A program made the position numbers and the translations under genes. The notes beneath the pieces are model-generated. The model was given only the letters and a program-made list of their open reading frames with translations, was not told the DNA's origin and searched no databases. A DNA stretch of 12,980 nucleotides from Myxococcaceae bacterium (GTDB lineage Bacteria > Myxococcota > Myxococcia > Myxococcales > Myxococcaceae): positions 1 through 12,980 of the forward strand of contig JAIBBQ010000187.1 of NCBI GenBank assembly GCA_019694595.1. The letters are read 5' to 3'. Positions within the stretch are counted from its first letter, which is position 1, and each line of letters opens with the position of its first letter. Positions 204 through 12,830 of this stretch are shown here, piece by piece.

Positions 204-965
204 TCAGAGCGTCTCGCCGCCGTCGATGCTGTAGGCGGCGCCGGTGATGCTCTTCGCGGCGTCGTTGGCGGCGAGGAACCAGGTGAGCTCGGCGACCTCC
301 TCGGCGGTGACGAAGCGCCCCTGGGGCGTCATCTTGGCGAGCTCGGCGCGGGCGTCGTCGGTGCTGCGGCCGGTGGCCTTGACGATGTTGCCCACCGAGT
401 TCGAGAGCATGTCGGTGTCGGTCCACCCGGGGCACACCGCGTTCACGGTGACGTTCTTGGCCGCCAGCTCGTGCGCCAGCGCGCGGGTGAGCCCAAGCAG
501 CGCGTGCTTCGAGGCGCAGTAGGCCGAGGTGTACCGGAAGCCCTTGAGCGCGGCGGTCGAGGCCACGTTCACCACCCGGCCGCCGCCGGACTTCACCATC
601 GCGGGGATGACCGCGCGGCACAGCTGCCACGGCGCGGTGACGTTGACCTGCATCACCTTGGCGAAGTCGGCGTCGGAGGTCTTCGCGAGCGGCGCGGAGA
701 TGGCGATGCCCGCGTTGTTGACCAGGGCCTCGAGGCGGCCTGCGCCCTGGAGCACGGTCTGCGCGGCGGCCTCCACGGTGGGGCTCGACTCGGCGTCGAA
801 GCGCACCGGGTGCAGCAGGCTGCGCTGGGCGGGCGGCACCTCGATGGCGGCTTCGGGTTTGCGCACCAGGGCCCAGACGTGCCAGCCCTCGCGCAGGAAG
901 CGCAGCGCGATGGCGCGGCCGATGCCTCGGGAAGCTCCAGTCACCGCGACGTGTCGATCGGACAT
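204..965 (-). CDS. Short-chain dehydrogenase/reductase (SDR) family oxidoreductase, 3-oxoacyl-ACP reductase-like.
   Basis: 253 aa. It has the TGASRGIGRA Rossmann motif (TGxxxGxG), NNAG, and the YCASK catalytic Y-x3-K. GC3 is very high. AGAGGG lies just upstream of the ATG. Confidence 0.9.
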   Translation of the reverse strand: MSDRHVAVTGASRGIGRAIALRFLREGWHVWALVRKPEAAIEVPPAQRSLLHPVRFDAESSPTVEAAAQTVLQGAGRLEALVNNAGIAISAPLAKTSDADFAKVMQVNVTAPWQLCRAVIPAMVKSGGGRVVNVASTAALKGFRYTSAYCASKHALLGLTRALAHELAAKNVTVNAVCPGWTDTDMLSNSVGNIVKATGRSTDDARAELAKMTPQGRFVTAEEVAELTWFLAANDAAKSITGAAYSIDGGETL

Positions 966-1123
966 GGCCCCCCTCTAACAAGGCGCCGCGCCTGGGTGTG
1001 CGGGGTGACAACTCCAGTTGCCGTCACCGCCTCGCGACGTCTCCTCCCGTTGACAGGTGCGCGGGCCGCGGCGCGGGCAGATGGTGCGGGGCAGTCGGGC
1101 CCTCTTCACGCGAAAGGCGCCGC

Positions 1124-3016
1124 ATGCGCACCCAGAGCCTCGCCACCTTCCTGCTGCTCGCCGCTGCCTGCGGCCCCGTCGACGACCACGAGTCGGCCTA
1201 CGTCGACCACGACATCGGCTCCTTCGAGCAAGGCCTCAACGTGGGCGCCGCCGGCGGCTGCGACACCTCCATCGTGCGCGGGCTGACCGCGCAGCTGTAC
1301 GCGGAGATGAACTGCATCGCGCCCAACACGATGGTGAACTTCACCGGGCCCAACATCAGCATCACCTCGCCCGTGGAGCCGTACCTCGCCCCGCCGGCGA
1401 GCGCGGCGATGAAGCGGGCGGTGGCCGCGTCGGGCACCAACATCACCATCAACAGCGCCTGGCGCTCGGTCGCCCAGCAGTACCTGCTCTACAAGTGGTG
1501 GAAGGCGGGGCAGTGCGGCATCCAGATCGCCGCCGCCCCCGGCAAGAGCAACCACCAGTCGGGGCGTGCGCTCGACGTGCCGTCGTACTCGTTCTGGATC
1601 CCGAAGCTCCAGGCCCAGGGCTGGCGCTGGCTGGGCAGCTCGGACCGGGTGCACTTCGACTACAACGGCGCGGCGGACCAGTCGGCGCGCTCGGTGCTCG
1701 CGTTCCAGCGCCTGTGGAACAAGAACAACTCCAGCAAGCTCGCCGAGGACGGCTCCTGGGGGCCCAACACCGAGAGCGCGATGTCGCGCTCGCCGGCGAC
1801 CGGGTTCGGCACCTCGGGGTGCGCGCCCAAGCCGCCGCCTCCGCCGACCGTCACCACCGGCACCTTCAAGGGCAAGGTCTTCAAGCTCAACGCGGCCGCG
1901 CCCACCGACGTCTCGGTGGCGGTGAGCGGCGCCACGGTGAAGGTCGGCGGCAAGGTGCTCACCACCGACGCCGCTGGGGCCTTCACGGTGGTGCTCCCGG
2001 CGGCGACCTACACGCTGAGCGCGGAGGCCACCGGGTACACCGCGGCCTCGGTGAGCAAGGCGCTCACCGCCGGCCAGACGGTGACGGTGAACGTGGGCCT
2101 CGCGCCGGTGGGCGTGGCGGACACCATGAAGCCGGAGATCGACCTCCTGACGCCGGAGTCGGGCGCCAAGCTCGACGTGGCGAAGGTCACGGTGACCGGC
2201 ACCGCGAGCGACGACCGCAGCGGGGTGAAGACGTTCACGATGGCGCAGAACGGCGGCGTGGCGAAGGCGGTGGCGCTGCAGACCGGCGGCGACTTCTCGG
2301 TCGACGTGGTCCTCGCGCCGGGCGCCAACACGCTCGTCTTCTCCGCCACCGACGGCGCGGGCAACGTGGGCACCCTCTCGGTGCCGCTCACCTTCCGAGC
2401 GGGCCTCGAAGGCCTGGTGACGTCGGGTGACGAAGGCAGCGCGATGCCGCTCGAAGGCGTGCAGGTCGAGCTGCAGGACGGCGCCGGCATGGTGCTCCTG
2501 TCCACCACCACCGGGCCCGATGGCACCTACGCGATCGAGCTCACCGACGTGCCCGCGGAGCGGGTGCTGGTGGCGCGCCTCGGCGGCTACGCCGACTACC
2601 GCTCGCCGGTGAGCCTGTCGGCCGACGCGCGGACCCAGTGGAGCTTCACCATGGACCGCTCGATGGGCACCGGGCTGCGCATCCTCTCGCCCGAGGAAGG
2701 CGACGTGGTGGACACCGCGAGCGTCTCGGTCGCCGGCGTGGTCGACGGCTTCGCGCCGACGAGCGTGCTGGTGAACGGGACCGAGGCGACGCTCTACCCG
2801 GGCGGCCGCTTCGGCGTCTCCGTGGGGCTCTTGTACGGCACCAACGCGGTGGTGGCGGTGGCGCGCGGCGCGAACGGCGAGACCGCGGAGCAGGTGGTGC
2901 ACGTGCGGCGCGAGAGCGGGACCATGGCGGCGGGCGGCGGCTGCTCGGCGGCGCCGGGGACCTTGGTGCTCCTCGCCGCGGCCGCGCTGCTGCGGCGCCG
3001 CGCGCGTCATTCGTAG
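1124..3016 (+). CDS. Lipoprotein peptidase M15 (VanY / D-Ala-D-Ala carboxypeptidase-like, LAS zinc peptidase fold) with tandem carboxypeptidase-regulatory-like / Ig-like beta domains and a MYXO-CTERM-like C-terminal sorting tail.
   Basis: The start MRTQSLATFLLLAAACG (lipobox LAAAC) at 1124 is preferred over the upstream in-frame start at 998; AAAGG lies upstream. The zinc-ligand pattern is SNHQSGRALD (H-x6-D) followed by DRVHFDY. A PKPPPPP linker follows, then repeated roughly 90-aa beta modules (GTFKGKVFKL..., LEGVQVELQDGAGMVLLSTTTGPDGTYAIEL...). The tail is GGGCSAAPGTLVLLAAAALLRRRARHS. Confidence 0.8.
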   Translation: MRTQSLATFLLLAAACGPVDDHESAYVDHDIGSFEQGLNVGAAGGCDTSIVRGLTAQLYAEMNCIAPNTMVNFTGPNISITSPVEPYLAPPASAAMKRAVAASGTNITINSAWRSVAQQYLLYKWWKAGQCGIQIAAAPGKSNHQSGRALDVPSYSFWIPKLQAQGWRWLGSSDRVHFDYNGAADQSARSVLAFQRLWNKNNSSKLAEDGSWGPNTESAMSRSPATGFGTSGCAPKPPPPPTVTTGTFKGKVFKLNAAAPTDVSVAVSGATVKVGGKVLTTDAAGAFTVVLPAATYTLSAEATGYTAASVSKALTAGQTVTVNVGLAPVGVADTMKPEIDLLTPESGAKLDVAKVTVTGTASDDRSGVKTFTMAQNGGVAKAVALQTGGDFSVDVVLAPGANTLVFSATDGAGNVGTLSVPLTFRAGLEGLVTSGDEGSAMPLEGVQVELQDGAGMVLLSTTTGPDGTYAIELTDVPAERVLVARLGGYADYRSPVSLSADARTQWSFTMDRSMGTGLRILSPEEGDVVDTASVSVAGVVDGFAPTSVLVNGTEATLYPGGRFGVSVGLLYGTNAVVAVARGANGETAEQVVHVRRESGTMAAGGGCSAAPGTLVLLAAAALLRRRARHS

Positions 3017-4197
3017 AGCGAGCCCACCGCGCCTTGCCAGGCGTGGGTCACGCCCCCGCTCTTCGAGCTGAGGATGAACGGGACCTGGAAGGTCGCCGGG
3101 AGCGCCGCAGCTGCGCTCACCGTGAGCGTCAGGTCCTGCCCGTCGTTGGTGGTGGTGCTCGAGAGCGAGAGCTGGACCCGCGCATCCAGGCTGAGCGCCT
3201 GCAGCGTCCAGTCGGGGACGGCGCCGAGGCTGCGGCTGCGGAGCGGGATCGTCGTCGCCTCTCCGGGGCGCAGCACGATCAGCGTTCGTCCCGAGACCGG
3301 CACCGTCGTGAAGTCGACGCCGTCGGAGTCGAGTCTACAGGGGTCGAGGCCACGCGCCGCGCGACGGTCCGAGTACACCCGTTCCACCTCATGGGGCCCC
3401 GCGGTGGTGGTGCCTGAATAGAGGCAGACGTCGGCGAGCTCGGCGCCGTGGGTCGCGGCCCAGCCCGAGTCGTCGACCACGAAGCCATCCATGAAGGGGT
3501 CGGTCGCCGCCTCGACGAGCTCGTGCGACGCGAGGAAGGTCTGCGTGCGGAGCGTGCTGGAGTCGGAGCAGCGGAGCATGACGGAGTAGGGGACCCGCAC
3601 CGGCGCGCCCGCCCGCGACTGGAGCGTGAGGAAGTAATGGTACGCGTGGTATCCGCTGCACGAGGGCGCTCCGAAGGGCTGCGTGAAGGTCGCGCCCGCG
3701 GGAATGAAGAGCAGGTAGTTGCTCTGCGCGTCCGGTTCGCGCACCGCGGGGTTGGCGAGATCGGCGGCGATCAGCGCCCTGACGTCGTCCTCCGAGTAGC
3801 TGGTGGCCGGAGGCAGGGTGACGGTGCCGTCGAAGGCTCCAGGACCGATGCAGCCGTTGGGGCCGCAGTACTCGGCGGTGACCTGGGCCCACCAGGCGCT
3901 GGTGACGATGTCCCGCGAGAAGGTCTCGAGCGCGCCCGCGAGCGGATCTCCCGCGGCGATGGCCACTCTCAGGTGGACCTGCGTCTGCACCAGGCCGCCG
4001 TGGCTGCGCACGCGGGGGTAGCGGGGGAAGAGCGCCGTTCCCGCGTCGGTGCCGGCGTCCATTCCGGCGTCGGGCGTGGGACCCGTGTCGGGCACCATCG
4101 CCAGACCGGCGTCGGGGCAGTCCATCGACGAGACCGGCGGCGTCGAACCGCCACATGCAGCCAGCACGGCCGCAACTGCCAGCAGGACAGGTTTCAT
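3007..4197 (-). CDS. Secreted lipoprotein of unknown function (397 aa), with an Asp/Ala/Gly/Pro-rich linker after the lipobox.
   Basis: The start MKPVLLAVAAVLAACGG is the complement of 4195-4197; GGGAG lies 6 nt upstream. The listed 666-aa ORF 3007..5007 carries a spurious Arg/Gly-rich N-terminal extension that overlaps the real gene 4392..4997 in another frame. The C-terminal part is beta-rich. A HELVE stretch (not HExxH) is the only peptidase-like hint. GC3 is noticeably lower than in flanking genes. Confidence 0.7.
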   Translation of the reverse strand: MKPVLLAVAAVLAACGGSTPPVSSMDCPDAGLAMVPDTGPTPDAGMDAGTDAGTALFPRYPRVRSHGGLVQTQVHLRVAIAAGDPLAGALETFSRDIVTSAWWAQVTAEYCGPNGCIGPGAFDGTVTLPPATSYSEDDVRALIAADLANPAVREPDAQSNYLLFIPAGATFTQPFGAPSCSGYHAYHYFLTLQSRAGAPVRVPYSVMLRCSDSSTLRTQTFLASHELVEAATDPFMDGFVVDDSGWAATHGAELADVCLYSGTTTAGPHEVERVYSDRRAARGLDPCRLDSDGVDFTTVPVSGRTLIVLRPGEATTIPLRSRSLGAVPDWTLQALSLDARVQLSLSSTTTNDGQDLTLTVSAAAALPATFQVPFILSSKSGGVTHAWQGAVGSLYE

Positions 4198-4391
4198 TCG
4201 AGGCTCCCGACGCGTCGCACCTTCCGGACCGGCCTTCTCTTCCGGAGACAGGACGCTCTTGGTCTCGGAACTTCCAAGAAGGCAGTCTGTCCGGATGAGG
4301 ACGCCCGTGACGGCGGTAGAGCTCAGGTGGGGAAACACCGGCTGGTCGGCCTGACGCTCGGCCCCTCGCCTCGCCGGCGGGCTCGGCAGGC

Positions 4392-4997
4392 CTACCGCCG
4401 CGTCGCCGGCCTTCGTCGTGTCTTGCTGGCGGCGATCGCGGCGGCCATCGCCAGCTGATGGTCCTTCTGCCAGGGCGCGCCGGCCTCCGCGCGGGCCGCG
4501 GCGAGGTGCTGCTTCAGCGTGCCACCGAGCACCCGGTCGGCCTCGTCGAGCGCCTGCTTGGGCTCGTACCAGTGCACCGCCCAGCCGCGCGCCGTCGCCG
4601 CGGCGGCGAGGGCCCGGCGGTACATCACCCAGTCGGCCACGCACATCGCCCGGTAGTTCTGGATCCGCGCCTCCACCGTCCCGGGGAGCGGCGGGCACAC
4701 GCGCAGCGCGATGCCCGTCGGCTCGACGCCGAGCTCCGCCGCAAGGGTCGAGAGTGCGGCCTCGGAGCACCGCTGCGCCGAGCGCTCGACCTGGCGGACC
4801 AGGGCCACGGCCTTCGCCAGCTCGAGCCTTTGGCCCTCGTGGTGGTGGGGCATGACCGGAAGGCCCGCTTCCGTGAGAGCGACGCGCCGTCGGTCGAGCA
4901 GGGCGCCGGGAGGGCGCACCGTGATCAGCACCGCCCAGCCCGCATGGTCCATCACGCCCACCAGCGCCCGGCCCGCGCGCGGACGCCGGTTGCTCAC
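4392..4997 (-). CDS. Hypothetical protein (201 aa), translationally coupled to the upstream sigma-54 activator gene.
   Basis: Third-position G/C is strongly enriched in this frame (checked across 4441-4500). The start is GTG, complement of 4995-4997, overlapping the TGA stop of the upstream gene (GTGA overlap). An alternative ATG lies at residue 16. I recognise no domain. Confidence 0.55.
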   Translation of the reverse strand: MSNRRPRAGRALVGVMDHAGWAVLITVRPPGALLDRRRVALTEAGLPVMPHHHEGQRLELAKAVALVRQVERSAQRCSEAALSTLAAELGVEPTGIALRVCPPLPGTVEARIQNYRAMCVADWVMYRRALAAAATARGWAVHWYEPKQALDEADRVLGGTLKQHLAAARAEAGAPWQKDHQLAMAAAIAASKTRRRPATRR

Positions 4998-6346
4998 CGC
5001 GCGTCACCGCGCGTCTTGAGCCCCAGCCGCGCCATCATGGTGCGCACGGTGCCACCCGGGTCGCGCGCCTTGCCGCGCCCCACCTCGCCGAGCAGCCGCG
5101 CTGCCTCCGCTGCGTTGCCGCCCGCGCGCCGCAGCGCCTCTTCCAGCGCCGCGCGCTCGAGCGCCTCGCGCTCCTGCTTCAGGTTCATCGTGCCCGCGGC
5201 CACGCGCCGGGCGACCTCGGCCACGTCCACCACCGCGCCGACCACCTGGGGCGCCTCGCGGCGGATGAGGCGCCGCGGGAGGTCCGACGGCAGGAGCTCC
5301 TCCCCGGCGGTCTTCTGCACCAGCGCCGAGGCGATGACGTTGCGCAGCTCGCGGATGTTGCCCGGCCAGCGCCACTGCACGAGCAGCTCCATCGCCTCGT
5401 CGGTGACGGTGCGCACCTGGCCGCGCGAGGCGGTGGTCTCCTGCGCGTAGAACTGGGTGATGAAGTGCTCGACGAGGTGGGGAATGTCCTCGCGGCGCGC
5501 GCGCAGCGGCGGCAGCTCGAGCGAGAGCACCGAGAGCCGCTCGAAGAGGTCGGCCCCGAAGGTGCCTTGCTCGATGAGCACCCGCAGGTCGCGGTTGGTC
5601 GCCGCCACCAGCCGGAAGTCGACCTGGTGCCAGACGCTCTCGCCCAGGCGGGAGACCACCCGGTCTTCCAGCACGCGCAACAGCTTCACCTGCAGCGAGT
5701 GGGGCGTGTCGTCGATCTCGTCGAGGAAGACGGTGCCGCCTTCCGCCGCGAGGATGAGGCCGTCGTAGTCCTTCACCGCGCCCGAGAAGGCGCCCTTGGT
5801 GTACCCGAAGAGCTCGCCTTCCATCAGCTCGTTGGGAATGGCGGCGCAGTTGATGGGCACGAAGGTCTTGCGAGACCGCGGGCTCCACTGGTGCAGGAGG
5901 CGCGCGGCGACCTCCTTGCCGGTGCCCGTCTCGCCGGTGATGAGCACCGGCATCGACGTCTTCGCCGCGCGGCTCACCTGCGCCAGCAGCGCCCGCGTCA
6001 CCGGGCTCTTCGCCACCACGCCCGCGGGAATCGTCGGCGCCGACACCTCGAAGAGCAGCTCGCGCAGCCGCCGCACCAGCCGGTCGCGGCCCGCCGGTGA
6101 GGCGAGCGTGCAGGCGTCGTGGGCACCGCGCTCCACCGCCTGCAGCACCTGGCCGCCGCCGAGCTCCACGTCGCAGACCCACACCCAGGGCTCGAGGCCG
6201 CGCGGCGCCGGCGGCACCTCGGCCTTCGCGGTGCGCACCACCCGGATGCGCGCCGGGCTCTTGCCGCGCTCCAGCCCCAGCGCGCCGATCGCTGCCGCCA
6301 GCGGGCCCTGCGGCGGCGTTCCCTTCCAGTCGAGGCCTTCGCTCAT
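4994..6346 (-). CDS. Sigma-54-dependent transcriptional activator (bacterial enhancer-binding protein, NtrC/Fis family) with an atypical N-terminal domain.
   Basis: It has the AAA+ sigma-54 interaction domain: Walker A GETGTGKE, the GAFSGA variant of GAFTGA, Walker B VFLDEIDD, and the GNIRELRNV arginine finger. A C-terminal Fis-type HTH follows (AAEAARLLGEVGRGKARDPGGTVRTMMARLGL). The roughly 130-aa N-terminal region lacks the receiver DD...D...K signature. The alternative 455-aa ORF 5004..6371 in another frame has Arg/Gly/Ala artefact composition. Confidence 0.9.
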   Translation of the reverse strand: MSEGLDWKGTPPQGPLAAAIGALGLERGKSPARIRVVRTAKAEVPPAPRGLEPWVWVCDVELGGGQVLQAVERGAHDACTLASPAGRDRLVRRLRELLFEVSAPTIPAGVVAKSPVTRALLAQVSRAAKTSMPVLITGETGTGKEVAARLLHQWSPRSRKTFVPINCAAIPNELMEGELFGYTKGAFSGAVKDYDGLILAAEGGTVFLDEIDDTPHSLQVKLLRVLEDRVVSRLGESVWHQVDFRLVAATNRDLRVLIEQGTFGADLFERLSVLSLELPPLRARREDIPHLVEHFITQFYAQETTASRGQVRTVTDEAMELLVQWRWPGNIRELRNVIASALVQKTAGEELLPSDLPRRLIRREAPQVVGAVVDVAEVARRVAAGTMNLKQEREALERAALEEALRRAGGNAAEAARLLGEVGRGKARDPGGTVRTMMARLGLKTRGDAR

Positions 6347-6418
6347 GGCGCTGCACGGTAGCGCGATTCAAATGGTGGTGATGGCGGAGTGAAATGCCGA
6401 GTCACTGCTCGAGCGCCG

Positions 6419-6435
6419 GTGGCACCTGAGCCGCG
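6419..6435 (+). promoter_or_regulatory. Candidate sigma-54 (-24/-12) promoter for the divergent giant ORF.
   Basis: TGGCAC-ctgag-ccGCg has the GG and GC dinucleotides at the canonical 10-bp spacing and a perfect -24 hexamer. It sits between the EBP gene and the 6453 ORF. The predicted TSS is near 6446, leaving only about a 7-nt leader before the ATG at 6453. The -12 region matches only the GC core. Confidence 0.35.
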
Positions 6436-6452
6436 CCGGGTAGACTGCATGA

Positions 6453-9400
6453 ATGCGGATCGGGGGGATCCTGGCGACGTTGGTGTGCCTCCATGCGCCG
6501 GCGGCCCTGGCCGACGGGTTGATCGGCGTGCCCCCGTACCCACCGAGGAACGTCTCGCGGCCCGACGGTTCCTACGCCGAGTTCATCCAGGTCGGCGCCG
6601 GTGGGGAGCCTTCGGCGACGATCACCACCGCGGGCACGACGATCTCGGTCGACGCGCTCCTCTTCTACGTCGAGGAGGTGCAGAGCTCGGGCAACGTCAC
6701 CCTGACGGTGAGCACCGGCGCAGCGTCCGTGTCCTCGGTGCTGTCGGTCGGGCAACCGGGGTGGACGGAATGGCGCTTCGTCCCGCCGGTACCTGTGGGC
6801 AACTCGACCCTCACGCTCACGCCAGACCCGGGAGTCGCGGTCACGTTCCGGCACCTGCGGCACGAGTACGAGGCAGACCATCAGCTGGGGGGCGAGGCCG
6901 CGCCGCTGCTGTTCCCCACGGGCCTGCGTGACGGTGGGCCCCCGTACGACGTGTCGTTCGTCTTCCGCCGCAGCGGTGGTCGAGATCCGTATGCGTTGCC
7001 TGGTTGCAGCGCCGCCGATTCCGATCCGGTGGGGGGCTTCCCGTACGTCCGCGTGTTCAAGGTGCCCATCGACCCGGCTTCCGGGTTGAGCCAGTCGCTG
7101 GTCTTCCCGCCCGGGTTCCGGAGTTTCGGTGGCGGCTCGTGCGTGCAGACCGGCTTGGCGTACGCCTCGCCGGAAGCGAGTCTGAGCGTTTCGTACTCGG
7201 CCATCGATGGTGGACCCGGGCCGTGGGTGCCGCTTCTCGAGAGCGGGCTTGCGTCTCGTGCGCCGGTGGTGGCTGACGACGATGGTGGTGTCAGCGCACC
7301 GTTCACACTGTCGATCCGGAGCGACGGTGGCCTGGCCGCGTGGGCGATGTTCGACACCGGCCCGGAGCTGCTCGACCCGTGCCACCCCGCCGCGCGCGCG
7401 ACCTTCGGAGGTGCCCGCGCCAGAGCGGTGGGCTTCGGGGCCGGCGCGGATCTGGCGACGCGCTTCTCCGCCTCCGCTGCGCTGCCACGCTGGCCCGACG
7501 ATGACGGCGATGGGTACGGCGCTCGCGGGGCCCAGCGCTGGGTGTGCTCCTTCGTCGCTCGGTCTGCCGTGGGCCTCGTCGTCAACGGCGAGGACTGCGA
7601 CGACCGCTCCTTCGACACGAAGCCCGGGGCGGGCGAGCTCTGCAATGGGCGCGACGACGACTGTGATGGCCTGGTCGATGCCGACGACACGCTCGAGGCC
7701 ACGCCCGCCTGCGAGCTGTCTCGGGGCGTCTGCGCGGGGGCACGGCACGACTCCGTTCGTTGCCGCGGTGGCCGGTGGGACGCCTGCGGGAGCGAGTACG
7801 GCCCGCGGTACGAGGCGCAGGAGGTGTCCTGCGACGGGCTGGACAACGACTGCGACGGCCGGACCGACGACGTCGGTGCAGGGCCGCCCTGCTTCTTCCA
7901 GCTCGGCGTCTGCGCGGGTGCGCGTGCTCGCGTCTGCACGTCGGAGCGTTGGCTCGCTTGCACCGACGCCGACTACGGGCCCGACTTTCAGGCGGTCGAG
8001 ACGCAGTGTGACGGACTGGACAACGACTGTGACGGCAGAACGGATGGGGCAGACTTCGACCTGCCTTCGACGCTGTGTGAGAAGCAGCTCGGCGTCTGTG
8101 CCCGCGCCGTTCACGCTGCCACGGACTGCACCGCCGCAGGGTGGGCCGAATGCCCGGCGTCGCGCTACCCCGCCGACTACGAGCCGATCGAGGGCCGCTG
8201 TGACGGGCTCGACAACGACTGCGACGGCGTCGTCGACGAGGGCTGCCGGGCCGCGCCACCGCCTGCCCGGTGCGGCTGCGGAACGACCCTGGGCGTGTGG
8301 CCAGCACTGGGGCTCCTCGTCTGGTGGGGCCGCCGCCGGCGTGCGCACGCGCTGACGCTCGTCGCCGTCGTGCTCGCGCTTCCAGCTCGCGCGGAAAGCG
8401 TTCAGACCGTGATCGTGCAGGGCCCCACCGCGGTGGAGGTGACGGCGCCCTCAGCGGTGTCGACCGCGCACGACGGCCGCTCGTTCCTGGTGGTGTTCAA
8501 CGCCGACCGCGCTTTGATCGCACGGCTCACCGAAGCTGGCGGACAGTCAGGTCGCGCGGAAGACCTCGGGCCGCCGTTCGCCCGCGGTGCCGGGTGCAAG
8601 CCGGCGGGGCGCTGCGTGGTCAACCTCCGGGGGACGCTCTCGGTCCTTCGGGACGCCGGAGACGGCGGCTGGGGACTGGGACCTTCCACCGGCCTGGTGA
8701 AAGCCTTCGATGCCGACCCCGGTGGCTGGGTCGTGCTGGCCGAGGAGAGTTCGGGAACGGTTCGGAAGGTCGACGAGGCCATGGCGCTGCAGTGGCAGCG
8801 AACCGTCTCTCCGTTCGCCGACCGGGTGTACTTCATCGCCGACGACGAAGGCTTCGTCGCGCTGGGATACCTGCGGGGATTCACCACGACGTCGTACATC
8901 ACGGTGATCGCCCCGGACGGCGGACAGGAAGGGCTGGCCGAGATCCTGGTTCCGCCAGGGGCCATCGTGGCGGGGCAGGCCAACTCGGGCAGCTGGACCG
9001 CGGCGTCGGTCGCCCCGCGCGAGGTGGTGCTCATGTCCCGCAACTCACTGTGGACGCCCGCGGGAACGCCCATTCCCTTTCCCGTCTCCATGTCCCAGCG
9101 AACCACGGGCGGCGTCGCGTTCTTCGGCCGGCAGGGAGACCAGATGATGTCGCTCGCCGTCGACCGCGCGGGCCTCGCGCTCGCGCTCTCGACCCTCGGC
9201 GACGGTGGCGCTTGCAGTGACGAGGCTGCCTTCGCGGCGGGCGCGGACGCCGGCGTGGCCTGCTGGTCGAAGACGGGCCAGTGCTGGAATGGCCCCTGCT
9301 GCAAGGTCGGCTGCGCGTCGACCGATGCCGTCGCCCGGCCGACGGGGCCCTGGGTGCCGTTGGTCGCTGACGCGGTCACTCATCTGACGCCTTCGGTGCA

Positions 9401-10748
9401 GCTCGCGGCACGCGATGGCGGCGTCGTGCAGTGTGAGCTCTCGCTCGAGCGCGGCGGAGTGCACGCGGTGTGGGACCTCGGTGCGCTCGATGGCGGAAGT
9501 CCGGCGCTGTTCCCACCAGGGACGACGGTCGACCTCGTGCCCTGGGGGCGGGTCCTCCGGAGCGCCTCGGCGCTCACGACCCTCTCGACGAGCGGTCAGC
9601 CCGGCCCGTCGGTGGCCATTCCCCCGGGAGCCTCGCTCGCGCTCGCGGAGGACGGCTACCTGCGGATCCGCCTCGATGGGGGAACGCTCGAGTTCGTCCA
9701 GATCGCGGCGTCGCCCACCGGCTTCACGGAGACCCGGCCGGTGGTGCTGCGACGCGCTGCGCCCGTCGGCGGCCTCCGGCTCACCAGCTCCGGACGCGGC
9801 GTGCTGGTCGTCTGGGACGAGCAGGACCAGCGCTTCGGCGCCGTGGTCCAGCGCGGCCTGCCGCTCCCCGCCGTGTCGTCATTCGGGCCCGCGGTTCCGG
9901 TCCTGGGCCTGGGAACGAGCGCAGACGATTCGGTCTGGCAGGTGCTCCAGCGCGTCGACGGAGGGGTCGCGCTGGTCACCTGGACCGAGACCGACGCCGG
10001 GCTCGTCGCTGCGGGCAGCGTCGAGTTGCCGGTCCACGATTGTCTCGAGCCCACGCTCATCGGCGGCACGCCGCCGGTCCTCCAGTGCGTGACCGGTGCG
10101 GAAGCCCGGCTGGCGCTGTCCTGGGTCGACCCCGACGGCGGCTTGCGGGCGATCAGAGGACTCGACGGGGCCTCGTCGGTGCGCGAGGTCGGCGCCGCAC
10201 GCTCGGGCGAAGGGCTGATGCTCGCAGTCGCCCGGCGCGCCCTCGACGGCGGCAGTCAACTCGACCTGGTCCGGGTCGACTCGCTCGCGCTGGGGTCGCC
10301 GTGCGCGTCGGGCGAGGCGTGCCGGTCCGGCTGGTGCGTGGACGGGGTGTGCTGTGACGACCCTTGCGGCGGCGGCCTCGACGGGGACTGTCTTGCGTGC
10401 TCGGCGACGCGTGGGGCGCCAGCCGATGGTCGTTGTGCCCCGGTGCTCGCAGGGACCGTCTGCCGGCTTTCTCAGGGGCCCTGCGACCTGCCGGACGTGT
10501 GCGACGGGCTGCACGCGAGCTGCCTGCCCCGCACCATGAGCGACGGCACGGTGTGCGAAGTCAGCGGGCGGCAAGCCACCCGGGTGTGCAGTGCTGGAAA
10601 GTGCCTGCCGCTGGCGCCTGCAGAGCCTCCGGTCCTCGTCGCTCCTGCCCCGGCACCGGCGTGTGGCTGCGGAGCGCTCGAGGGGGCGTGGTGGCCGCTC
10701 GCGCTGCTGCTGGTGCTTGCGAAGCGAATCATGGCCAAACGCGAATGA
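6453..10748 (+). CDS. Giant cell-surface protein (1431 aa) that looks like two MYXO-CTERM proteins fused in frame.
   Basis: The N-terminal signal peptide is MRIGGILATLVCLHAPAALA|DG. A roughly 370-aa unknown domain follows, then four Cys-rich repeats with the core CDGLDNDCDG, then ARCGCGTTLGVWPALGLLVWWGRRRR (MYXO-CTERM-like). The frame then continues with AHALTLVAVVLALPARA|ESV (signal-peptide-like), a roughly 640-aa beta-rich region, a 16-Cys module, and a terminal ACGCGALEGAWWPLALLLVLAKRIMAKRE. There is a single open frame with consistent GC3 throughout. Confidence 0.75.
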   Translation: MRIGGILATLVCLHAPAALADGLIGVPPYPPRNVSRPDGSYAEFIQVGAGGEPSATITTAGTTISVDALLFYVEEVQSSGNVTLTVSTGAASVSSVLSVGQPGWTEWRFVPPVPVGNSTLTLTPDPGVAVTFRHLRHEYEADHQLGGEAAPLLFPTGLRDGGPPYDVSFVFRRSGGRDPYALPGCSAADSDPVGGFPYVRVFKVPIDPASGLSQSLVFPPGFRSFGGGSCVQTGLAYASPEASLSVSYSAIDGGPGPWVPLLESGLASRAPVVADDDGGVSAPFTLSIRSDGGLAAWAMFDTGPELLDPCHPAARATFGGARARAVGFGAGADLATRFSASAALPRWPDDDGDGYGARGAQRWVCSFVARSAVGLVVNGEDCDDRSFDTKPGAGELCNGRDDDCDGLVDADDTLEATPACELSRGVCAGARHDSVRCRGGRWDACGSEYGPRYEAQEVSCDGLDNDCDGRTDDVGAGPPCFFQLGVCAGARARVCTSERWLACTDADYGPDFQAVETQCDGLDNDCDGRTDGADFDLPSTLCEKQLGVCARAVHAATDCTAAGWAECPASRYPADYEPIEGRCDGLDNDCDGVVDEGCRAAPPPARCGCGTTLGVWPALGLLVWWGRRRRAHALTLVAVVLALPARAESVQTVIVQGPTAVEVTAPSAVSTAHDGRSFLVVFNADRALIARLTEAGGQSGRAEDLGPPFARGAGCKPAGRCVVNLRGTLSVLRDAGDGGWGLGPSTGLVKAFDADPGGWVVLAEESSGTVRKVDEAMALQWQRTVSPFADRVYFIADDEGFVALGYLRGFTTTSYITVIAPDGGQEGLAEILVPPGAIVAGQANSGSWTAASVAPREVVLMSRNSLWTPAGTPIPFPVSMSQRTTGGVAFFGRQGDQMMSLAVDRAGLALALSTLGDGGACSDEAAFAAGADAGVACWSKTGQCWNGPCCKVGCASTDAVARPTGPWVPLVADAVTHLTPSVQLAARDGGVVQCELSLERGGVHAVWDLGALDGGSPALFPPGTTVDLVPWGRVLRSASALTTLSTSGQPGPSVAIPPGASLALAEDGYLRIRLDGGTLEFVQIAASPTGFTETRPVVLRRAAPVGGLRLTSSGRGVLVVWDEQDQRFGAVVQRGLPLPAVSSFGPAVPVLGLGTSADDSVWQVLQRVDGGVALVTWTETDAGLVAAGSVELPVHDCLEPTLIGGTPPVLQCVTGAEARLALSWVDPDGGLRAIRGLDGASSVREVGAARSGEGLMLAVARRALDGGSQLDLVRVDSLALGSPCASGEACRSGWCVDGVCCDDPCGGGLDGDCLACSATRGAPADGRCAPVLAGTVCRLSQGPCDLPDVCDGLHASCLPRTMSDGTVCEVSGRQATRVCSAGKCLPLAPAEPPVLVAPAPAPACGCGALEGAWWPLALLLVLAKRIMAKRE
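7597..8247 (+). repeat. Four tandem protein-level cysteine-rich repeats (about 55-60 aa each) of the Myxococcales CDGLDNDCDG putative metal-binding type.
   Basis: The units end in LCNGRDDDCDGLVDADD, SCDGLDNDCDGRTDD, QCDGLDNDCDGRTDG and RCDGLDNDCDGVVDEGC. Each is preceded by C-x5-6-GVCAGA-x-C-x6-W-x2-C-x4-Y-x6-E. The DNA units have diverged; the repeat is visible in the translation. Confidence 0.75.
8262..8400 (+). other. Internal MYXO-CTERM-like sorting motif immediately followed by a signal-peptide-like segment (junction of the two halves of the giant ORF).
   Basis: The translation reads CRAAPPPARCGCG-TTLGVWPALGLLVWWG-RRRR-AHALTLVAVVLALPARA-ESVQ, i.e. Cys motif, hydrophobic helix, basic cluster, a second hydrophobic helix and an AxA-type cleavage site. 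There is no in-frame stop. The only in-frame alternative start nearby is GTG at about 8295. Confidence 0.6.
10297..10745 (+). other. C-terminal 16-Cys module plus terminal MYXO-CTERM sorting signal of the giant ORF.
   Basis: SPCASGEACRSGWCVDGVCCDDPCGGGLDGDCLACS...GKCLPLAP has 16 Cys in about 110 aa. The C-x-SG-x-C-VDGVCC pattern resembles Dickkopf-N-like / disintegrin-like bacterial Cys-rich modules. PAPAPACGCGALEGAWWPLALLLVLAKRIMAKRE follows. Confidence 0.5.
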
Positions 10749-10841
10749 AATGACGTCGCGGTGTCGTGGTCCCAGTCGTCCTCCACGGCCACCTCCGGCA
10801 CCCCGGGTGCACTCCCACCGGCATCTCGAAGGGAGGCCCGT

Positions 10842-12719
10842 ATGTTCGACATCTCGACGTGGGTGGTGCTGGGAGCGGTGGTCCTCAAGCTCGGGTTCAT
10901 CGTGGTGCTGCTGGGCTTGTGGGTGATTCGCGAGAACGAGGCCGGGGTGGTGGTGAAGAAGTTCGGCCCGGGGCTTCCCGCGGGGCGCCTCATCGCGCTC
11001 AACGGCGAGGCCGGCTACCAGGCGGAGCTGCTTCCGCCCGGCTGGCACTTCGGCCTGTGGCGCTGGAAGTACAAGGTGCTGCGGGTGCCGCTGGTGACGG
11101 TGCCACCGGAGGAGATCGCGCTGGTGGTGGCGAAGGACGGCGCCGCGATTCCCGCGGAGCGCATCCTCGGACAGGAGGTGTCGTGCGATGACTTCCAGAG
11201 CGCGCGGGCGTTCCTCACCAACGGCGGCGAGAAGGGGCGGCAGCTCGCCTTCCTCACCGCCGGCACCTACCGGGTGAACCCGGCGCTCTTCGACGTCATC
11301 ACCACCAAGAACGCGAGCCACTACGGCCTGTCGCCGTCGCAGCTCGAGGTCTTCCGGGTGCAGCCCGACCGCGTGGGCATCGTGACCACGCTCGACGGCG
11401 CGCCGATCGCGGCTGGCGATCTCGCGGGCCCCGAGGTCCAGGGGCACGAGCACTTCCAGCGTGGCCAGGCGTTCATCGACGCGGGCGGCTGCCGCGGCCT
11501 GCAGGAGCAAGTGCTCCTGTCCGGCGCGTGGAACCTGAACCCGTGGCTGGTGCAGGTCGACCAGATCCCGATGACCGAGATTCCCATCGGCTACGTGGGC
11601 GTGGTGGTGAGCTACGTGGGCAAGGAGCACGTCGACCTGTCCGGTGACGACTTCACCCACGGCGACCTGGTGGAGAAGGGCCGCAAGGGCGTGTGGATCG
11701 AGCCCCTGCTGCCCGGCAAGCACCCCATCAACACCCGGGTGATGAAGGTCGAGCTCGTGCCCACCACCAACATCGTCCTCAACTGGGCGACCCGGACCGA
11801 GGCGCACAAGTACGACGAGAAGCTCTGCCCGATCACCGTCCGCTCCAAGGACGGCTTCAGCTTCACGCTCGATGTGTCGCAGATCATCCACATCGGCATG
11901 AAGTCGGCCCCGCGGGTCATCTCGCGGGTGGGCTCGATGCAGAACCTGGTGGACCACGTGCTGCAGCCGACGGTGGCCAACTACTTCCGCAACTCGGCCC
12001 AGGAAGTCTCGGTGCTCGAGTTCCTCTCGGCGCGCAGCCAGCGCCAGCAGGAGGCGTACGCCAACATCAAGAGCGCGACCGAGGCGTACGACGTGGAGTG
12101 CATCGACACCCTCATCGGCGACATCGTGCCGCCGGCCGAGCTGATGAAGACGCAGACCGACCGGAAGATCGCCGACGAGCTCAAGCGCACCTTCGAGGTG
12201 CAGCGGGAGGCCCAGATGAAGCGCCAGGAGCTGGAACGCGAGACGTCGATCGCCAACATGCAGGCCGAGGTGGTGCGCTCCGAGCAGACGGTGCGCATCA
12301 GCGAGCGCAACGCCCAGTCGGTCGCCGAGACCGCCAAGGGTGAAGCGGCCCGCCGCCGGGTGAACGCCGAGGCCGACGCGCTGAGCCTCAAGCTCGGCGC
12401 CGAAGCCGAGGCCCAGGCGGTGCGCCTCAAGGGCATCGCCGAGGCCGACGCGGTGCGCGCGGTGGGCGCCGCGAAGGCCGAGGCGTACCGCTCGGGTGTC
12501 GAGGCGCTGGGCACCGGGGCGTACACCACGGTGCAGCTCGCCGGCATCCTCGGTGAGCACCACGTCAAGCTGGTGCCCGACGTGGCGGTGGGTGGAGAAG
12601 GTGGGGCAGGGGCGCTGGCGACCGCGCTGATGGGGCGGATGCTGAGCGGCGCTGCCACGCCCGCGAAGGCGACGGCCGCGGTGGCCCCGCCTCCGCTGCC
12701 CACCAACGGCAAGGCCTGA
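10842..12719 (+). CDS. Flotillin-like SPFH/band-7 family membrane protein (FloT/YqiK-type).
   Basis: The ATG at 10842 is preceded by GGGAGG at 10831-10836 with a 5-nt spacer. The listed GTG start at 10761 adds a non-hydrophilic leader and is less likely. There is an N-terminal TM hairpin (MFDISTWVVLGAVVLKLGFIVVLLGLWVI), an SPFH core, and a C-terminal coiled coil rich in Ala/Glu (SLKLGAEAEAQAVRLKGIAEADAVRAVGAAKAEAYRSGVEALG) typical of the flotillin tail. GC3 is very high. Confidence 0.8.
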   Translation: MFDISTWVVLGAVVLKLGFIVVLLGLWVIRENEAGVVVKKFGPGLPAGRLIALNGEAGYQAELLPPGWHFGLWRWKYKVLRVPLVTVPPEEIALVVAKDGAAIPAERILGQEVSCDDFQSARAFLTNGGEKGRQLAFLTAGTYRVNPALFDVITTKNASHYGLSPSQLEVFRVQPDRVGIVTTLDGAPIAAGDLAGPEVQGHEHFQRGQAFIDAGGCRGLQEQVLLSGAWNLNPWLVQVDQIPMTEIPIGYVGVVVSYVGKEHVDLSGDDFTHGDLVEKGRKGVWIEPLLPGKHPINTRVMKVELVPTTNIVLNWATRTEAHKYDEKLCPITVRSKDGFSFTLDVSQIIHIGMKSAPRVISRVGSMQNLVDHVLQPTVANYFRNSAQEVSVLEFLSARSQRQQEAYANIKSATEAYDVECIDTLIGDIVPPAELMKTQTDRKIADELKRTFEVQREAQMKRQELERETSIANMQAEVVRSEQTVRISERNAQSVAETAKGEAARRRVNAEADALSLKLGAEAEAQAVRLKGIAEADAVRAVGAAKAEAYRSGVEALGTGAYTTVQLAGILGEHHVKLVPDVAVGGEGGAGALATALMGRMLSGAATPAKATAAVAPPPLPTNGKA

Positions 12720-12772: not shown

Positions 12773-12830
12773 CGTTGCGGGGCCCACCCGGGTGGCGCCG
12801 GGGGAGCCGGGTTTGCTAGGGCCATCGCCC

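Follow-up and report, generated by a model that had tools for sequence, protein, structure and literature searches.

Organization of the locus

The window, meaning the whole 12,980-nt stretch of Myxococcaceae DNA analysed here, encodes a lipoprotein-like protein, a 201-aa protein and a sigma-54 enhancer-binding protein (EBP) on one strand, and a giant secreted protein and a flotillin-like SPFH protein on the other (Table 1). Four Cu-binding_MopE domains were assigned to the giant protein by Pfam. Its classification as a MYXO-CTERM protein was rejected, as the match (E 1.5) misses the cut-off and amounts to resemblance only. The EBP and giant genes diverge from a 106-bp spacer, and the tetranucleotide GTGA at 4994–4997 (reverse complement of 4991–5000, GCGGTGAGCA) combines the stop codon of the EBP gene with the GTG at which the 201-aa gene begins, an overlap already pointed out in the sequence-only reading and seen again here. 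Pfam, NCBIfam and PADLOC scans gave nothing usable for the EBP N-terminal domain, the 201-aa protein or the lipoprotein-like protein.

Table 1. Genes, protein domains and regulatory elements in the window
Feature	Position	Strand	Basis or remark
Lipoprotein-like gene (MKPVLLAVAAVLAACGG...)	3007..4197	-	Follows the 201-aa gene after ~195 nt
201-aa RuvC/RNase H-fold protein, widespread uncharacterised family	4392..4997	-	GTG start overlaps EBP stop
Sigma-54 enhancer-binding protein (EBP), 450 aa	4994..6346	-	Pfam domains, PDB sequence matches
Fis-type HTH, aa 393-420	5087..5170	-	PF02954 (HTH_8)
AAA+ sigma-54 interaction domain, aa 111-276	5519..6016	-	Sigma54_activat, Walker A GETGTGKE
GAFSGA loop (GAFTGA variant), aa 185-190	5777..5794	-	
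Predicted receiver-fold N-domain without phospho-acceptor pocket (pseudo-receiver), aa 1-100	6047..6346	-	
EBP-proximal AT-rich boxes GATTCAAAT (6365-6373) and TGAAATGCCG (6390-6399)	6365..6399	+	Resemble boxes before orthologous SPFH promoters
Sigma-54-like TGGCAC-CTGAG-CCGCG	6420..6435	+	TGGCAC 6420-6425, CCGCG 6431-6435
1431-aa secreted MopE-repeat protein gene, between EBP and SPFH genes	6453..10748	+	Cu-binding_MopE x4
SPFH-proximal boxes GCGAATCATGG (10724-10734) and TGAAATGACG (10746-10755), candidate enhancer (UAS)	10724..10755	+	
Conserved putative sigma-54 promoter CGGCAC-CCCGG-GTGCA	10796..10811	+	9/11, GG-N10-GC, TGCA at -12
Shine-Dalgarno AGGGAGG	10830..10836	+	5 nt before ATG 10842
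Flotillin-like SPFH/Band_7 membrane protein, 625 aa	10842..12719	+	PF01145, E 9e-25 (Pfam)

An enhancer-binding protein with a receiver-like N-terminal domain

By its AAA+ domain, GAFSGA loop and HTH, the 450-aa protein is a bacterial enhancer-binding protein and, on these sequence features, a putative activator of sigma-54 promoters. Residues 111–276 were assigned to Sigma54_activat (PF00158, E 5e-61) and residues 282–365 to AAA_lid_14, while HTH_8 (PF02954) scored 23.7 bits against a cut-off of 22 (E 4e-5); the AAA+, GAFSGA and Fis HTH modules named in the sequence-only reading were all recovered by Pfam or in the sequence. ZraR, NifA, NtrC1 and FleQ were among the PDB sequence matches, and all NCBIfam equivalog scores lay far under their cut-offs. 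Of 42 orthologues, 40 have Ser and 2 have Thr at position 4 of the GAFSGA loop, and a Thr-to-Ser variant of GAFTGA keeps function in PspF mutagenesis. Myxococcota hold more than 100 full-length orthologues of this EBP (55–66% identity), and cultured Pyxidicoccus, Corallococcus and Aggregicoccus contribute members to the subfamily. No rpoN gene lies on the 13-kb contig, and the lineage is presumed to possess one, as Myxococcota generally do.

The N-terminus had been described as lacking a recognisable receiver, GAF or PAS signature, and residues 1–110 indeed gave no Pfam or NCBIfam match even at E ≤ 10, the receiver model PF00072 included; PF00072 is also missing among the precomputed domains of the orthologues. 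In the AF2 model, residues 1–100 reach a pLDDT of ~90 or higher and adopt the CheY-like (beta/alpha) fold characteristic of REC domains, with the TadZ atypical receiver as the best Foldseek match. Alignment of 42 full-length orthologues revealed no conserved Asp or Glu after beta1, where the consensus reads G-x-x-P, and the residue after beta3 (D59 in the window EBP) is Asp in 7 and Glu in 8 of the 42. No column of residues 1–105 reaches 50% Lys, and the beta4 Thr/Ser is not conserved either, the sole Ser/Thr column of at least 70% being position 39, outside beta4. The structural model, the Foldseek match and the alignment together support the earlier suggestion that the region may be a degenerate receiver devoid of the acidic pocket, hereafter the predicted pseudo-receiver. 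A phmmer search with the domain against 1.8 billion representative proteins returned 34 weak relatives, nearly all fragments of the same EBP subfamily; the rapid divergence of the domain puts its relatives beyond the reach of searches with one sequence. A metagenome scan with the N-domain alignment, in which the scan patterns were Walker-A peptides, was set aside, since its 80 loci were mostly generic EBPs matching only residues 68–160 and were useless for synteny.

The 201-aa protein belongs to a widespread RuvC-fold family

The 201-aa ORF bears a clear coding signature, with GC contents of 0.78, 0.56 and 0.93 at codon positions 1, 2 and 3. The protein had been regarded as an orphan, a description that no longer holds, as more than 528 homologues with 50–60% identity were found in at least 377 species. 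The family spans Acidobacteriota, Eremiobacterota, Planctomycetota and Myxococcota in variable gene contexts: among 83 loci, no neighbour is common to more than ~15, and only one locus contains an EBP within 5 kb. Reciprocally, none of nine orthologous EBP loci (see below) contains a homologue. A defence or mobile-element role was considered for the gene, for which no PADLOC match and no conserved neighbour were found.

The AF2 model of the protein (pLDDT 92.5) retrieved RuvC as all of the top 11 Foldseek matches (E 1e-5 to 3.5e-4, probability 1.0 for the best, target-normalised TM 0.57–0.66), indicating an RNase H-like fold. In the family alignment, beta1 ends in an invariant Asp (D17), and the C-terminal helix has a conserved Asp followed by His, with D179 in at least 90% of sequences and H180 invariant; these residues may correspond to members of the acidic catalytic tetrad of RuvC (D-E-D/H-D). 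The family differs from RuvC in that identity is only 12–18%, the 201-aa protein is ~40 residues longer, and an invariant set of its own is present (H18, D35-R36-R37, H51-H52, Q56, R99, D122, R127 and W176). RuvC membership by sequence found no Pfam, NCBIfam or PDB match; PDB sequence searches with the protein and with the family profile matched kynurenine 3-monooxygenase alone, over a short local stretch (E 0.006–0.34), and this match was regarded as spurious. A large, strongly conserved RuvC-fold family without a Pfam or NCBIfam model is thereby brought to light.

A conserved SPFH gene and promoter cassette accompany the EBP

Nine orthologous EBP loci were compared (L084, L085, L086, L167, L168, L169, L170, L171 and L172), a small sample among the more than 100 orthologues that was chosen partly by size of contig. 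An SPFH/Band_7 gene of 600–650 aa lies beside or near the EBP gene in all nine. The two genes are divergent in L084, L085, L167, L168, L169, L171 and L172 and convergent in L086, and 7.4 kb of inserted genes stand between them in L170. The SPFH protein of the window is 64–75% identical to the EBP-adjacent genes of L084, L085, L168, L169, L171 and L172, and consists of an N-terminal membrane segment, Band_7 and a long Ala/Glu-rich C-terminal region.

A common cassette precedes these SPFH genes, comprising TGAATCACG-type AT-rich boxes, a gap of ~40–55 nt, the element (T/C)GGCA(C/G)-N5-NTGCA, and a leader with a strong Shine-Dalgarno (SD) sequence. The sigma-54 element, spaced as GG-N10-GC and with TGCA/T conserved at -12, is found in 8/9 loci, and the same eight carry the AT-rich upstream boxes and the SD leader; L168 has no correctly spaced -12 GC. 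Leaders measure 16–44 nt (~116 nt in L167), and an SD is present in all of them. The heptamer AATCACG occurs in 5 of 10 regions upstream of SPFH promoters (p 3e-7), and CGAATCA and AATGACG are likewise enriched, in 4 of 10 regions each; the box motif was defined after inspection of the sequences, while the k-mer enrichment test itself is unbiased.

In the window, the cassette spans 10724–10841. Its promoter element is the only intergenic sigma-54-like site of the window scoring 9/11, although its -24 hexamer starts with C rather than T, and the gap from the box to the promoter (10755 to 10796) is 40 nt, as in L170, L171 and L172 (40–41 nt). The start of the SPFH gene is likely ATG 10842 and its placement at GTG 10761 an annotation error; together with the finding that the 201-aa protein is no orphan, this corrects the annotation of the locus.

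No homologue of the giant gene between EBP and SPFH is present at the nine orthologous EBP loci, and the GC3 of this gene is 0.85 as against 0.95–0.96 in the flanking genes. By composition and synteny, it looks like a lineage-specific 4.3-kb insertion that split the EBP/SPFH pair.

Alternative readings of the EBP, its neighbour and the 6420 element

If the receiver still worked, with D59 phosphorylated by a histidine kinase encoded elsewhere, the receiver fold of the N-domain and the Asp after beta3 in the window EBP would be accounted for. We give this reading very little credence, given that D59 is an Asp in so few orthologues, that the acidic pair after beta1, a conserved beta4 Thr/Ser and a conserved Lys are all missing, that PF00072 finds no match even at E 10, and that neither the window nor the listed neighbours of the orthologues include a kinase gene. 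Equally improbable is a dedicated partnership in which the 201-aa protein serves the EBP as sensor, antagonist or co-regulator, as the sequence-only reading had proposed. The GTGA overlap implies co-transcription and possibly translational coupling, and L170 shows a similar overlap between the EBP stop and an unrelated 141-aa ORF; against a partnership speak the RuvC/RNase H-like fold, the cross-phylum distribution of the family with a nearby EBP at a single locus and no conserved neighbour, and the lack of the gene at all nine orthologous EBP loci. In the favoured reading, the 201-aa gene is a member of an unrelated widespread family, possibly coupled translationally to the EBP, and this by happenstance in this lineage only.

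The third alternative concerns the TGGCAC-N5-CCGCG string at 6420, which had been taken for the sigma-54 element of the giant gene. As was stated then, the spacer has no other sigma-54-like site, although within the window the 9/11 site at 10796–10811, before the SPFH gene, is better placed; the GG-N10-GC spacing of the 6420 string is correct and it stands 17 nt before ATG 6453, so the leader would be only ~7 nt long. A functional EBP-dependent promoter at this position, producing a nearly leaderless giant-gene transcript beside or instead of the SPFH transcript, would fit the perfect -24 hexamer, the box-like GATTCAAAT and TGAAATGCCG just upstream, the heptamer TGAAATG, which occurs in the window only at 6390 and at 10746 in the SPFH cassette, and the failure to find a sigma-70 consensus that could drive the giant gene otherwise (scans for sigma-70 promoters and terminators found nothing, a result that is uninformative at 72% GC). 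A second EBP-dependent promoter is conceivable because the boxes are combined with a perfect TGGCAC and the 9-mer TGGCACCTG is common to the EBP-proximal spacers of the window and L170. We nevertheless consider such a promoter rather unlikely. Matches of this kind occur at chance level, with 49 sites of at most three mismatches in the window versus 43.5 expected and, when GG and GC are required, 23 sites of at least 8/11 versus 18.6 ± 4.1 expected; the 6420 site is one of 20 scoring 8/11. Its -12 element, CCGCG, has neither the T that opens TGC nor an A/T at -11, both of which occur in all conserved SPFH promoters, the gap to the box is 20 nt instead of the conserved 40–41, and the short leader contains no SD, unlike the SPFH leaders. 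The homologous stretch in L170, the closest relative, reads CCGGTG--ACCTG and is a non-promoter segment upstream of the true promoter of that locus, and because the giant gene is absent from 9/9 orthologous loci the proposed promoter has no support from conservation. The string is probably a chance or relic match within a remnant of the old spacer. An origin of the two regulatory regions (6347–6452 and 10700–10841) by duplication was rejected as well, the pairwise alignment being non-significant (p 0.31).

Proposed regulation of the SPFH gene

Synteny and promoter conservation make it fairly probable that the EBP has its conserved partner, and its target, in the flotillin-like SPFH gene 4.4 kb away, rather than in the 201-aa gene or the giant gene. 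The EBP would bind the TGAATCACG-type boxes and assemble there into a hexamer, whose ATP hydrolysis would open the sigma-54 closed complex at the SPFH promoter. Gating would proceed without Asp phosphorylation, through contact of a protein or ligand with the predicted pseudo-receiver or through the expression level of the EBP alone. In the window, the compositionally distinct 4.3-kb surface-protein gene would have split the EBP/SPFH pair, leaving the SPFH gene with the complete cassette (10724–10841) and a second set of boxes beside the EBP start (6365–6399).

A more far-reaching version, to which we attach a low probability, would see in the pseudo-receiver EBP and the SPFH protein a Psp-like membrane-stress circuit that operates across Myxococcota, with the SPFH protein, or the membrane state that it reports, acting back on the N-domain of the EBP and so gating transcription of the SPFH gene itself from its sigma-54 promoter. 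In this lineage, the EBP-proximal boxes and TGGCAC at 6420 would in addition have been co-opted, and the newly inserted giant gene would have joined the regulon by way of an almost leaderless sigma-54 transcript.

The simpler pairing of the EBP with a sigma-54-dependent SPFH target would make the system one of an ordinary kind whose target has not been described before. Most of what was noted originally is ordinary: the activator belongs to the NtrC family and its receiver is degenerate, the gene next to it is unrelated, and the promoter-like string is attributable to chance. What gains interest is that, across Myxococcota, one EBP subfamily is associated with a flotillin-like SPFH gene preceded by a conserved putative sigma-54 promoter and candidate enhancer boxes. 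Myxobacteria have many uncharacterised EBPs, and this association provides a concrete, testable regulon candidate for one of them.

Comparison with known systems

The EBP family departs from NtrC, DctD and NtrC1 by the lack of a conserved phospho-acceptor Asp, acidic pair, Thr/Ser and Lys, of a PF00072 match and of an adjacent histidine kinase. It resembles FleQ and the atypical receiver domain (ARD) of TadZ/CpaE, in which a receiver fold serves regulation or interaction independently of phosphorylation; the AAA+ domain of FleQ is moreover a strong sequence match, and TadZ is the best structural match of the N-domain. The N-domain has, however, no detectable sequence relationship to either, and the putative target is a flotillin-like gene instead of flagellar, EPS or pilus genes.

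In the Psp system, an EBP without phosphorylation control is encoded beside a sigma-54-dependent gene for a membrane-associated protein concerned with membrane integrity, usually divergently and with the enhancers in a short spacer. The present arrangement is alike in that a predicted non-phosphorylated EBP lies near a putative sigma-54 membrane-protein gene, again usually divergent and with candidate enhancer boxes in the spacer, as for PspF and pspA of Enterobacteria. It differs in that PspF is without any N-terminal domain, whereas the window EBP keeps one with a receiver fold; in that the putative target is SPFH/flotillin-like (Band_7) and not PspA/IM30; and in that no PspA-like negative regulator was identified at the window EBP. 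Scores of 248 and 219 bits against the pspF models, with cut-offs of 444 and 529 (NCBIfam), place the EBP outside that family.

The SPFH protein shares its N-terminal membrane segment, Band_7 domain and Ala/Glu-rich C-terminus with FloT/YqiK, yet its match to the FloT model is weak (23.9 bits, far under the equivalog cut-off of 700; NCBIfam). The searchable literature yielded no account of an SPFH gene under sigma-54/EBP control. The flotillin genes of B. subtilis are under the control of an ECF sigma factor and not of sigma-54, while the pairing in Myxococcota suggests that a bacterial flotillin may be controlled by sigma-54.

Gene organization of the window

The window, the complete 12,980-bp contig of a Myxococcaceae metagenome-assembled genome, has a GC content of about 72%, so that long spurious ORFs are common, and the real ORFs were distinguished from them by codon-position GC. 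The resulting genes and the regulatory sequences between them are listed in the table below.

Genes and candidate regulatory sequences of the window
Feature	Coordinates	Strand	Remark
VanY/CarboxypepD_reg protein	998-3016	+	
Lipoprotein-like gene	4197-3007	-	
201-aa gene	4997-4392	-	
Sigma-54 enhancer-binding protein (EBP)	6346-4994	-	
Box-like GATTCAAAT	6365-6373		EBP-giant gene spacer
Box-like TGAAATGCCG	6390-6399		EBP-giant gene spacer
Sigma-54-like element (6420 element)	6420-6435		TGGCAC-CTGAG-CCGCG
1431-aa MopE-repeat secreted protein (giant gene)	6453-10748	+	
Sigma-54-type element of SPFH gene	10796-10811		CGGCAC-CCCGG-GTGCA
SPFH/Band_7 (flotillin-like) gene	10842-12719	+	best start ATG 10842, versus longest-ORF GTG 10761

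The start of the SPFH gene was assigned to the ATG, which follows a strong Shine-Dalgarno sequence (AGGGAGG) and agrees with the N-termini of the orthologues, and the GTG of the longest ORF was rejected on these grounds; a start at the latter position would hide a 93-nt regulatory region. The 3' ends of the convergent VanY-like and lipoprotein genes overlap by 10 nt (3007-3016). Downstream of the SPFH gene, a lipoprotein-like ORF (MRALVLGLSMLAMACGG...) begins at ATG 12830 and continues past the contig end; 12 nt before this ATG is a sigma-54-like GGGAGC-N5-TTGCT (12802-12817), which scores 8/11 and has a good -12 but a poor -24.

An EBP with a pocket-less receiver fold

Pfam analysis of the EBP identified Sigma54_activat at residues 111-276 (E 5e-61), AAA_lid_14 and HTH_8, with the GAFSGA loop at residues 185-190, confirming the AAA+ and Fis-type HTH assignment made by the sequence-only reading. 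For residues 1-110, neither Pfam nor NCBIfam gave a match, even at E 10. Searching with residues 1-158 returned a small set of EBP fragments sharing the N-terminal pattern, and the full-length search recovered more than 100 orthologues of about 445 aa with 55-66% identity, among them cultured Aggregicoccus, Pyxidicoccus parkwayensis and Corallococcus species; none of the orthologues contains a Pfam receiver domain. Gene calling split the orthologous EBP and SPFH genes of four metagenome contigs (L084, L086, L167 and L169) into two or more pieces; these breaks look like frameshifts caused by assembly or sequencing errors and account for the mostly short "proteins" returned by the N-domain search.

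The suggestion that the N-terminal region is a degenerate receiver lacking the acidic pocket is supported by both its fold and its conservation pattern. In the AlphaFold2 model, residues 1-100 form a compact alpha/beta domain (pLDDT about 90 or more), and its Foldseek matches are receivers with weak E-values, the best being the TadZ atypical receiver (5e-3). An alignment of 42 full-length orthologues showed W56, A70, G74, R93 and E96 to be invariant; it contains no conserved acidic residue after beta1 and no column with Lys at 50%, and the position after beta3 (D59 in the window EBP) is Asp in 7 and Glu in 8 of the 42 sequences.

Conserved pairing of the EBP with an SPFH gene

An SPFH/Band_7 gene is located near the EBP gene in all nine orthologous loci retrieved, and homologues of the giant, 201-aa and lipoprotein genes are found in none of them. 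A sigma-54-type element with the correct GG-N10-GC spacing precedes the SPFH gene in eight of the nine; L168, which lacks a correctly spaced -12 GC, is ambiguous.

Orthologous EBP loci, their SPFH genes and SPFH promoter elements
Locus	Source	Arrangement of EBP and SPFH gene	Identity to window SPFH	SPFH sigma-54 element
L084	metagenome contig	divergent	64% (over 268 aa)	TGGTAT-N5-ATGCT
L085	Myxococcaceae MAG	divergent	72%	TGGCAG-N5-ATGCA
L086	metagenome contig	convergent; SPFH promoter ~2 kb from EBP end	47-88% (frameshifted pieces)	TGGCAG-N5-ATGCA
L167	metagenome contig	divergent	only ~45 aa on contig	TGGCGA-N5-GTGCA
L168	metagenome contig	divergent	75%	
L169	metagenome contig	divergent	67%	TGGCCT-N5-CTGCA
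L170	closest relative, 9-Mb Myxococcaceae MAG	~7.4 kb apart, nine unrelated genes between	69%	TGGCAC-N5-ATGCT
L171	Pyxidicoccus parkwayensis	divergent	74%	TGGCAG-N5-GTGCA
L172	Corallococcus carmarthensis	divergent	74%	TGGCAG-N5-ATGCA

The leaders downstream of these elements measure 16-44 nt, except in L167 (about 116 nt), and all carry a strong Shine-Dalgarno sequence. The window SPFH gene has the same layout, with 30 nt including the AGGGAGG between element and ATG, and its element scores 9/11, as do just two other sites in the window, neither of them intergenic. The 130 nt preceding the -24 element were screened for enriched 7-mers in an unbiased way across ten loci; AATCACG came out first, with 5 of the 10 regions containing it (p = 3e-7, which becomes about 0.003 when corrected for all 7-mers), and next came CGAATCA and AATGACG, each found in 4 of 10. 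All three are parts of paired AT-rich boxes, such as CGTGATTCAA-N15-TTGAATCACG in L170, and 40-41 nt separate the promoter-proximal box from the -24 element in L170, L171, L172 and the window SPFH region (10755 to 10796). These boxes are interpreted as the candidate enhancer for this EBP.

In L170 the nine intervening genes occupy positions 583-8000, and box-like sequences occur at two places, one next to where the EBP gene begins and the other ahead of the remote SPFH gene. Together with the giant gene of the window, this insert indicates that the same intergenic region was split independently in two lineages.

The 6420 element and the giant gene

The sequence-only reading proposed that a near-leaderless sigma-54 element drives the giant gene. 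The string is indeed present 17 nt before ATG 6453 with correct spacing, but the match does not rise above chance: 49 sigma-54-like matches with up to 3 mismatches occur in the window against 43.5 expected, and requiring the GG and GC doublets leaves 23 sites that score at least 8/11 where 18.6 +/- 4.1 are expected, the 6420 site being one of 20 at 8/11. A functional promoter here is unlikely. The -12 element, CCGCG, lacks the TGC(A/T) kept by every conserved SPFH promoter, the box lies 20 nt away rather than 40-41 nt, and the leader of about 7 nt has no Shine-Dalgarno sequence. One observation counts in favour of the element: its 9-mer TGGCACCTG (6420-6428) also occurs in the spacer next to the EBP in L170, but the L170 copy has no GC at -12 and the pairwise alignment of the two spacers is not significant (p 0.17). 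The stretch around 6420 aligns (p 0.004) with the L170 segment between the boxes and the true promoter, CCGGTG--ACCTG lying opposite CCGGTGGCACCTG and the real L170 promoter starting 9 nt further downstream.

The EBP-giant gene spacer is nevertheless related to the conserved SPFH regulatory region, since it carries box-like sequences and TGAAATG occurs only there and at 10746 in the whole window. The giant gene is absent from the nine orthologous loci and has a GC3 of 0.85 versus 0.95-0.96 for the EBP and SPFH genes, which fits a later insertion into an ancestral EBP-SPFH spacer and further weakens the case for a 6420 promoter. Within the giant ORF, an internal CGCGTTLGVWPALGLLVWWGRRRR is directly followed by a signal-peptide-like AHALTLVAVVLALPARA/ES (8268-8395), and a second CGCG-hydrophobic-KR tail is located at the C-terminus (10650-10748). 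Both look like MYXO-CTERM sorting tags, with a TIGR03901 match of only E 1.5; given this resemblance, the ORF may represent two tandem genes fused in frame.

The 201-aa protein

The EBP stop and the GTG start of the 201-aa gene overlap as GTGA, as previously described, and the ORF has a clear coding signature (GC3 0.93). Its product is not an orphan: more than 528 homologues exist, with 50-60% identity across Myxococcota, Planctomycetota, Acidobacteriota, Eremiobacterota and other phyla, and at least 377 of 185,579 species genomes scanned encode the family, for which there is no Pfam, NCBIfam or PADLOC model. The alignment shows many polar residues among the invariant ones (D17, H18, D35-R36-R37, H51-H52, Q56, R99, D122, R127, W176 and H180). 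The AF2 model is very confident (pLDDT 92.5), and every one of its 11 best Foldseek PDB matches is a RuvC Holliday-junction resolvase (E 1e-5 to 3.5e-4, probability 1.0), which assigns the protein an RNase H/RuvC fold; PDB sequence searches with the protein and the family profile gave no sequence-level support for RuvC family membership. This group could be defined as a new family.

Homologues in three distant genomes have unrelated neighbours, and no neighbour family is common to more than about 15 of 83 loci. An EBP gene lies within 5 kb in only 1 of the 83, not adjacent, and the gene is missing from the nine EBP loci; these distributions and the RuvC fold argue against the protein being an EBP partner, and the coupling is a local arrangement conserved in no other locus examined.

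Proposed mechanism and comparison with known systems

These loci bring together a sigma-54 activator domain architecture, a pocket-less receiver fold, EBP-SPFH synteny and a conserved -24/-12 element with boxes and leader. In the proposed mechanism, the EBP would bind the boxes through its Fis-type HTH, form a hexamer and remodel the sigma-54 closed complex at the SPFH promoter. The rpoN gene, which Myxococcota carry, is not on the 12,980-bp contig. Because the receiver is not phosphorylatable, what controls EBP activity is probably the binding of a protein or ligand to this domain, or the amount of EBP; speculatively, the receiver could repress AAA+ assembly in the manner of NtrC1/DctD, acting via the helix at residues 84-99.

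Full-text searches, whose incomplete coverage makes this absence of evidence only, found no paper linking sigma-54 or an EBP to flotillin or SPFH genes, including in Myxococcus, and a large comparative sigma-54 regulon survey mentions none of Band 7, SPFH, stomatin, flotillin or HflK (PMC3162934). The system does not belong to Psp, since its target is Band_7 rather than PspA and the EBP scores to pspF models are far below the cut-offs. In function it is still closest to PspF/pspA, where an EBP that is not phosphorylated sits next to a membrane-integrity gene dependent on sigma-54. NtrC-family EBPs that combine an atypical receiver with a sigma-54 target nearby are an already-known kind of system; what is new and useful here is that the pairing with a flotillin-like gene is conserved.
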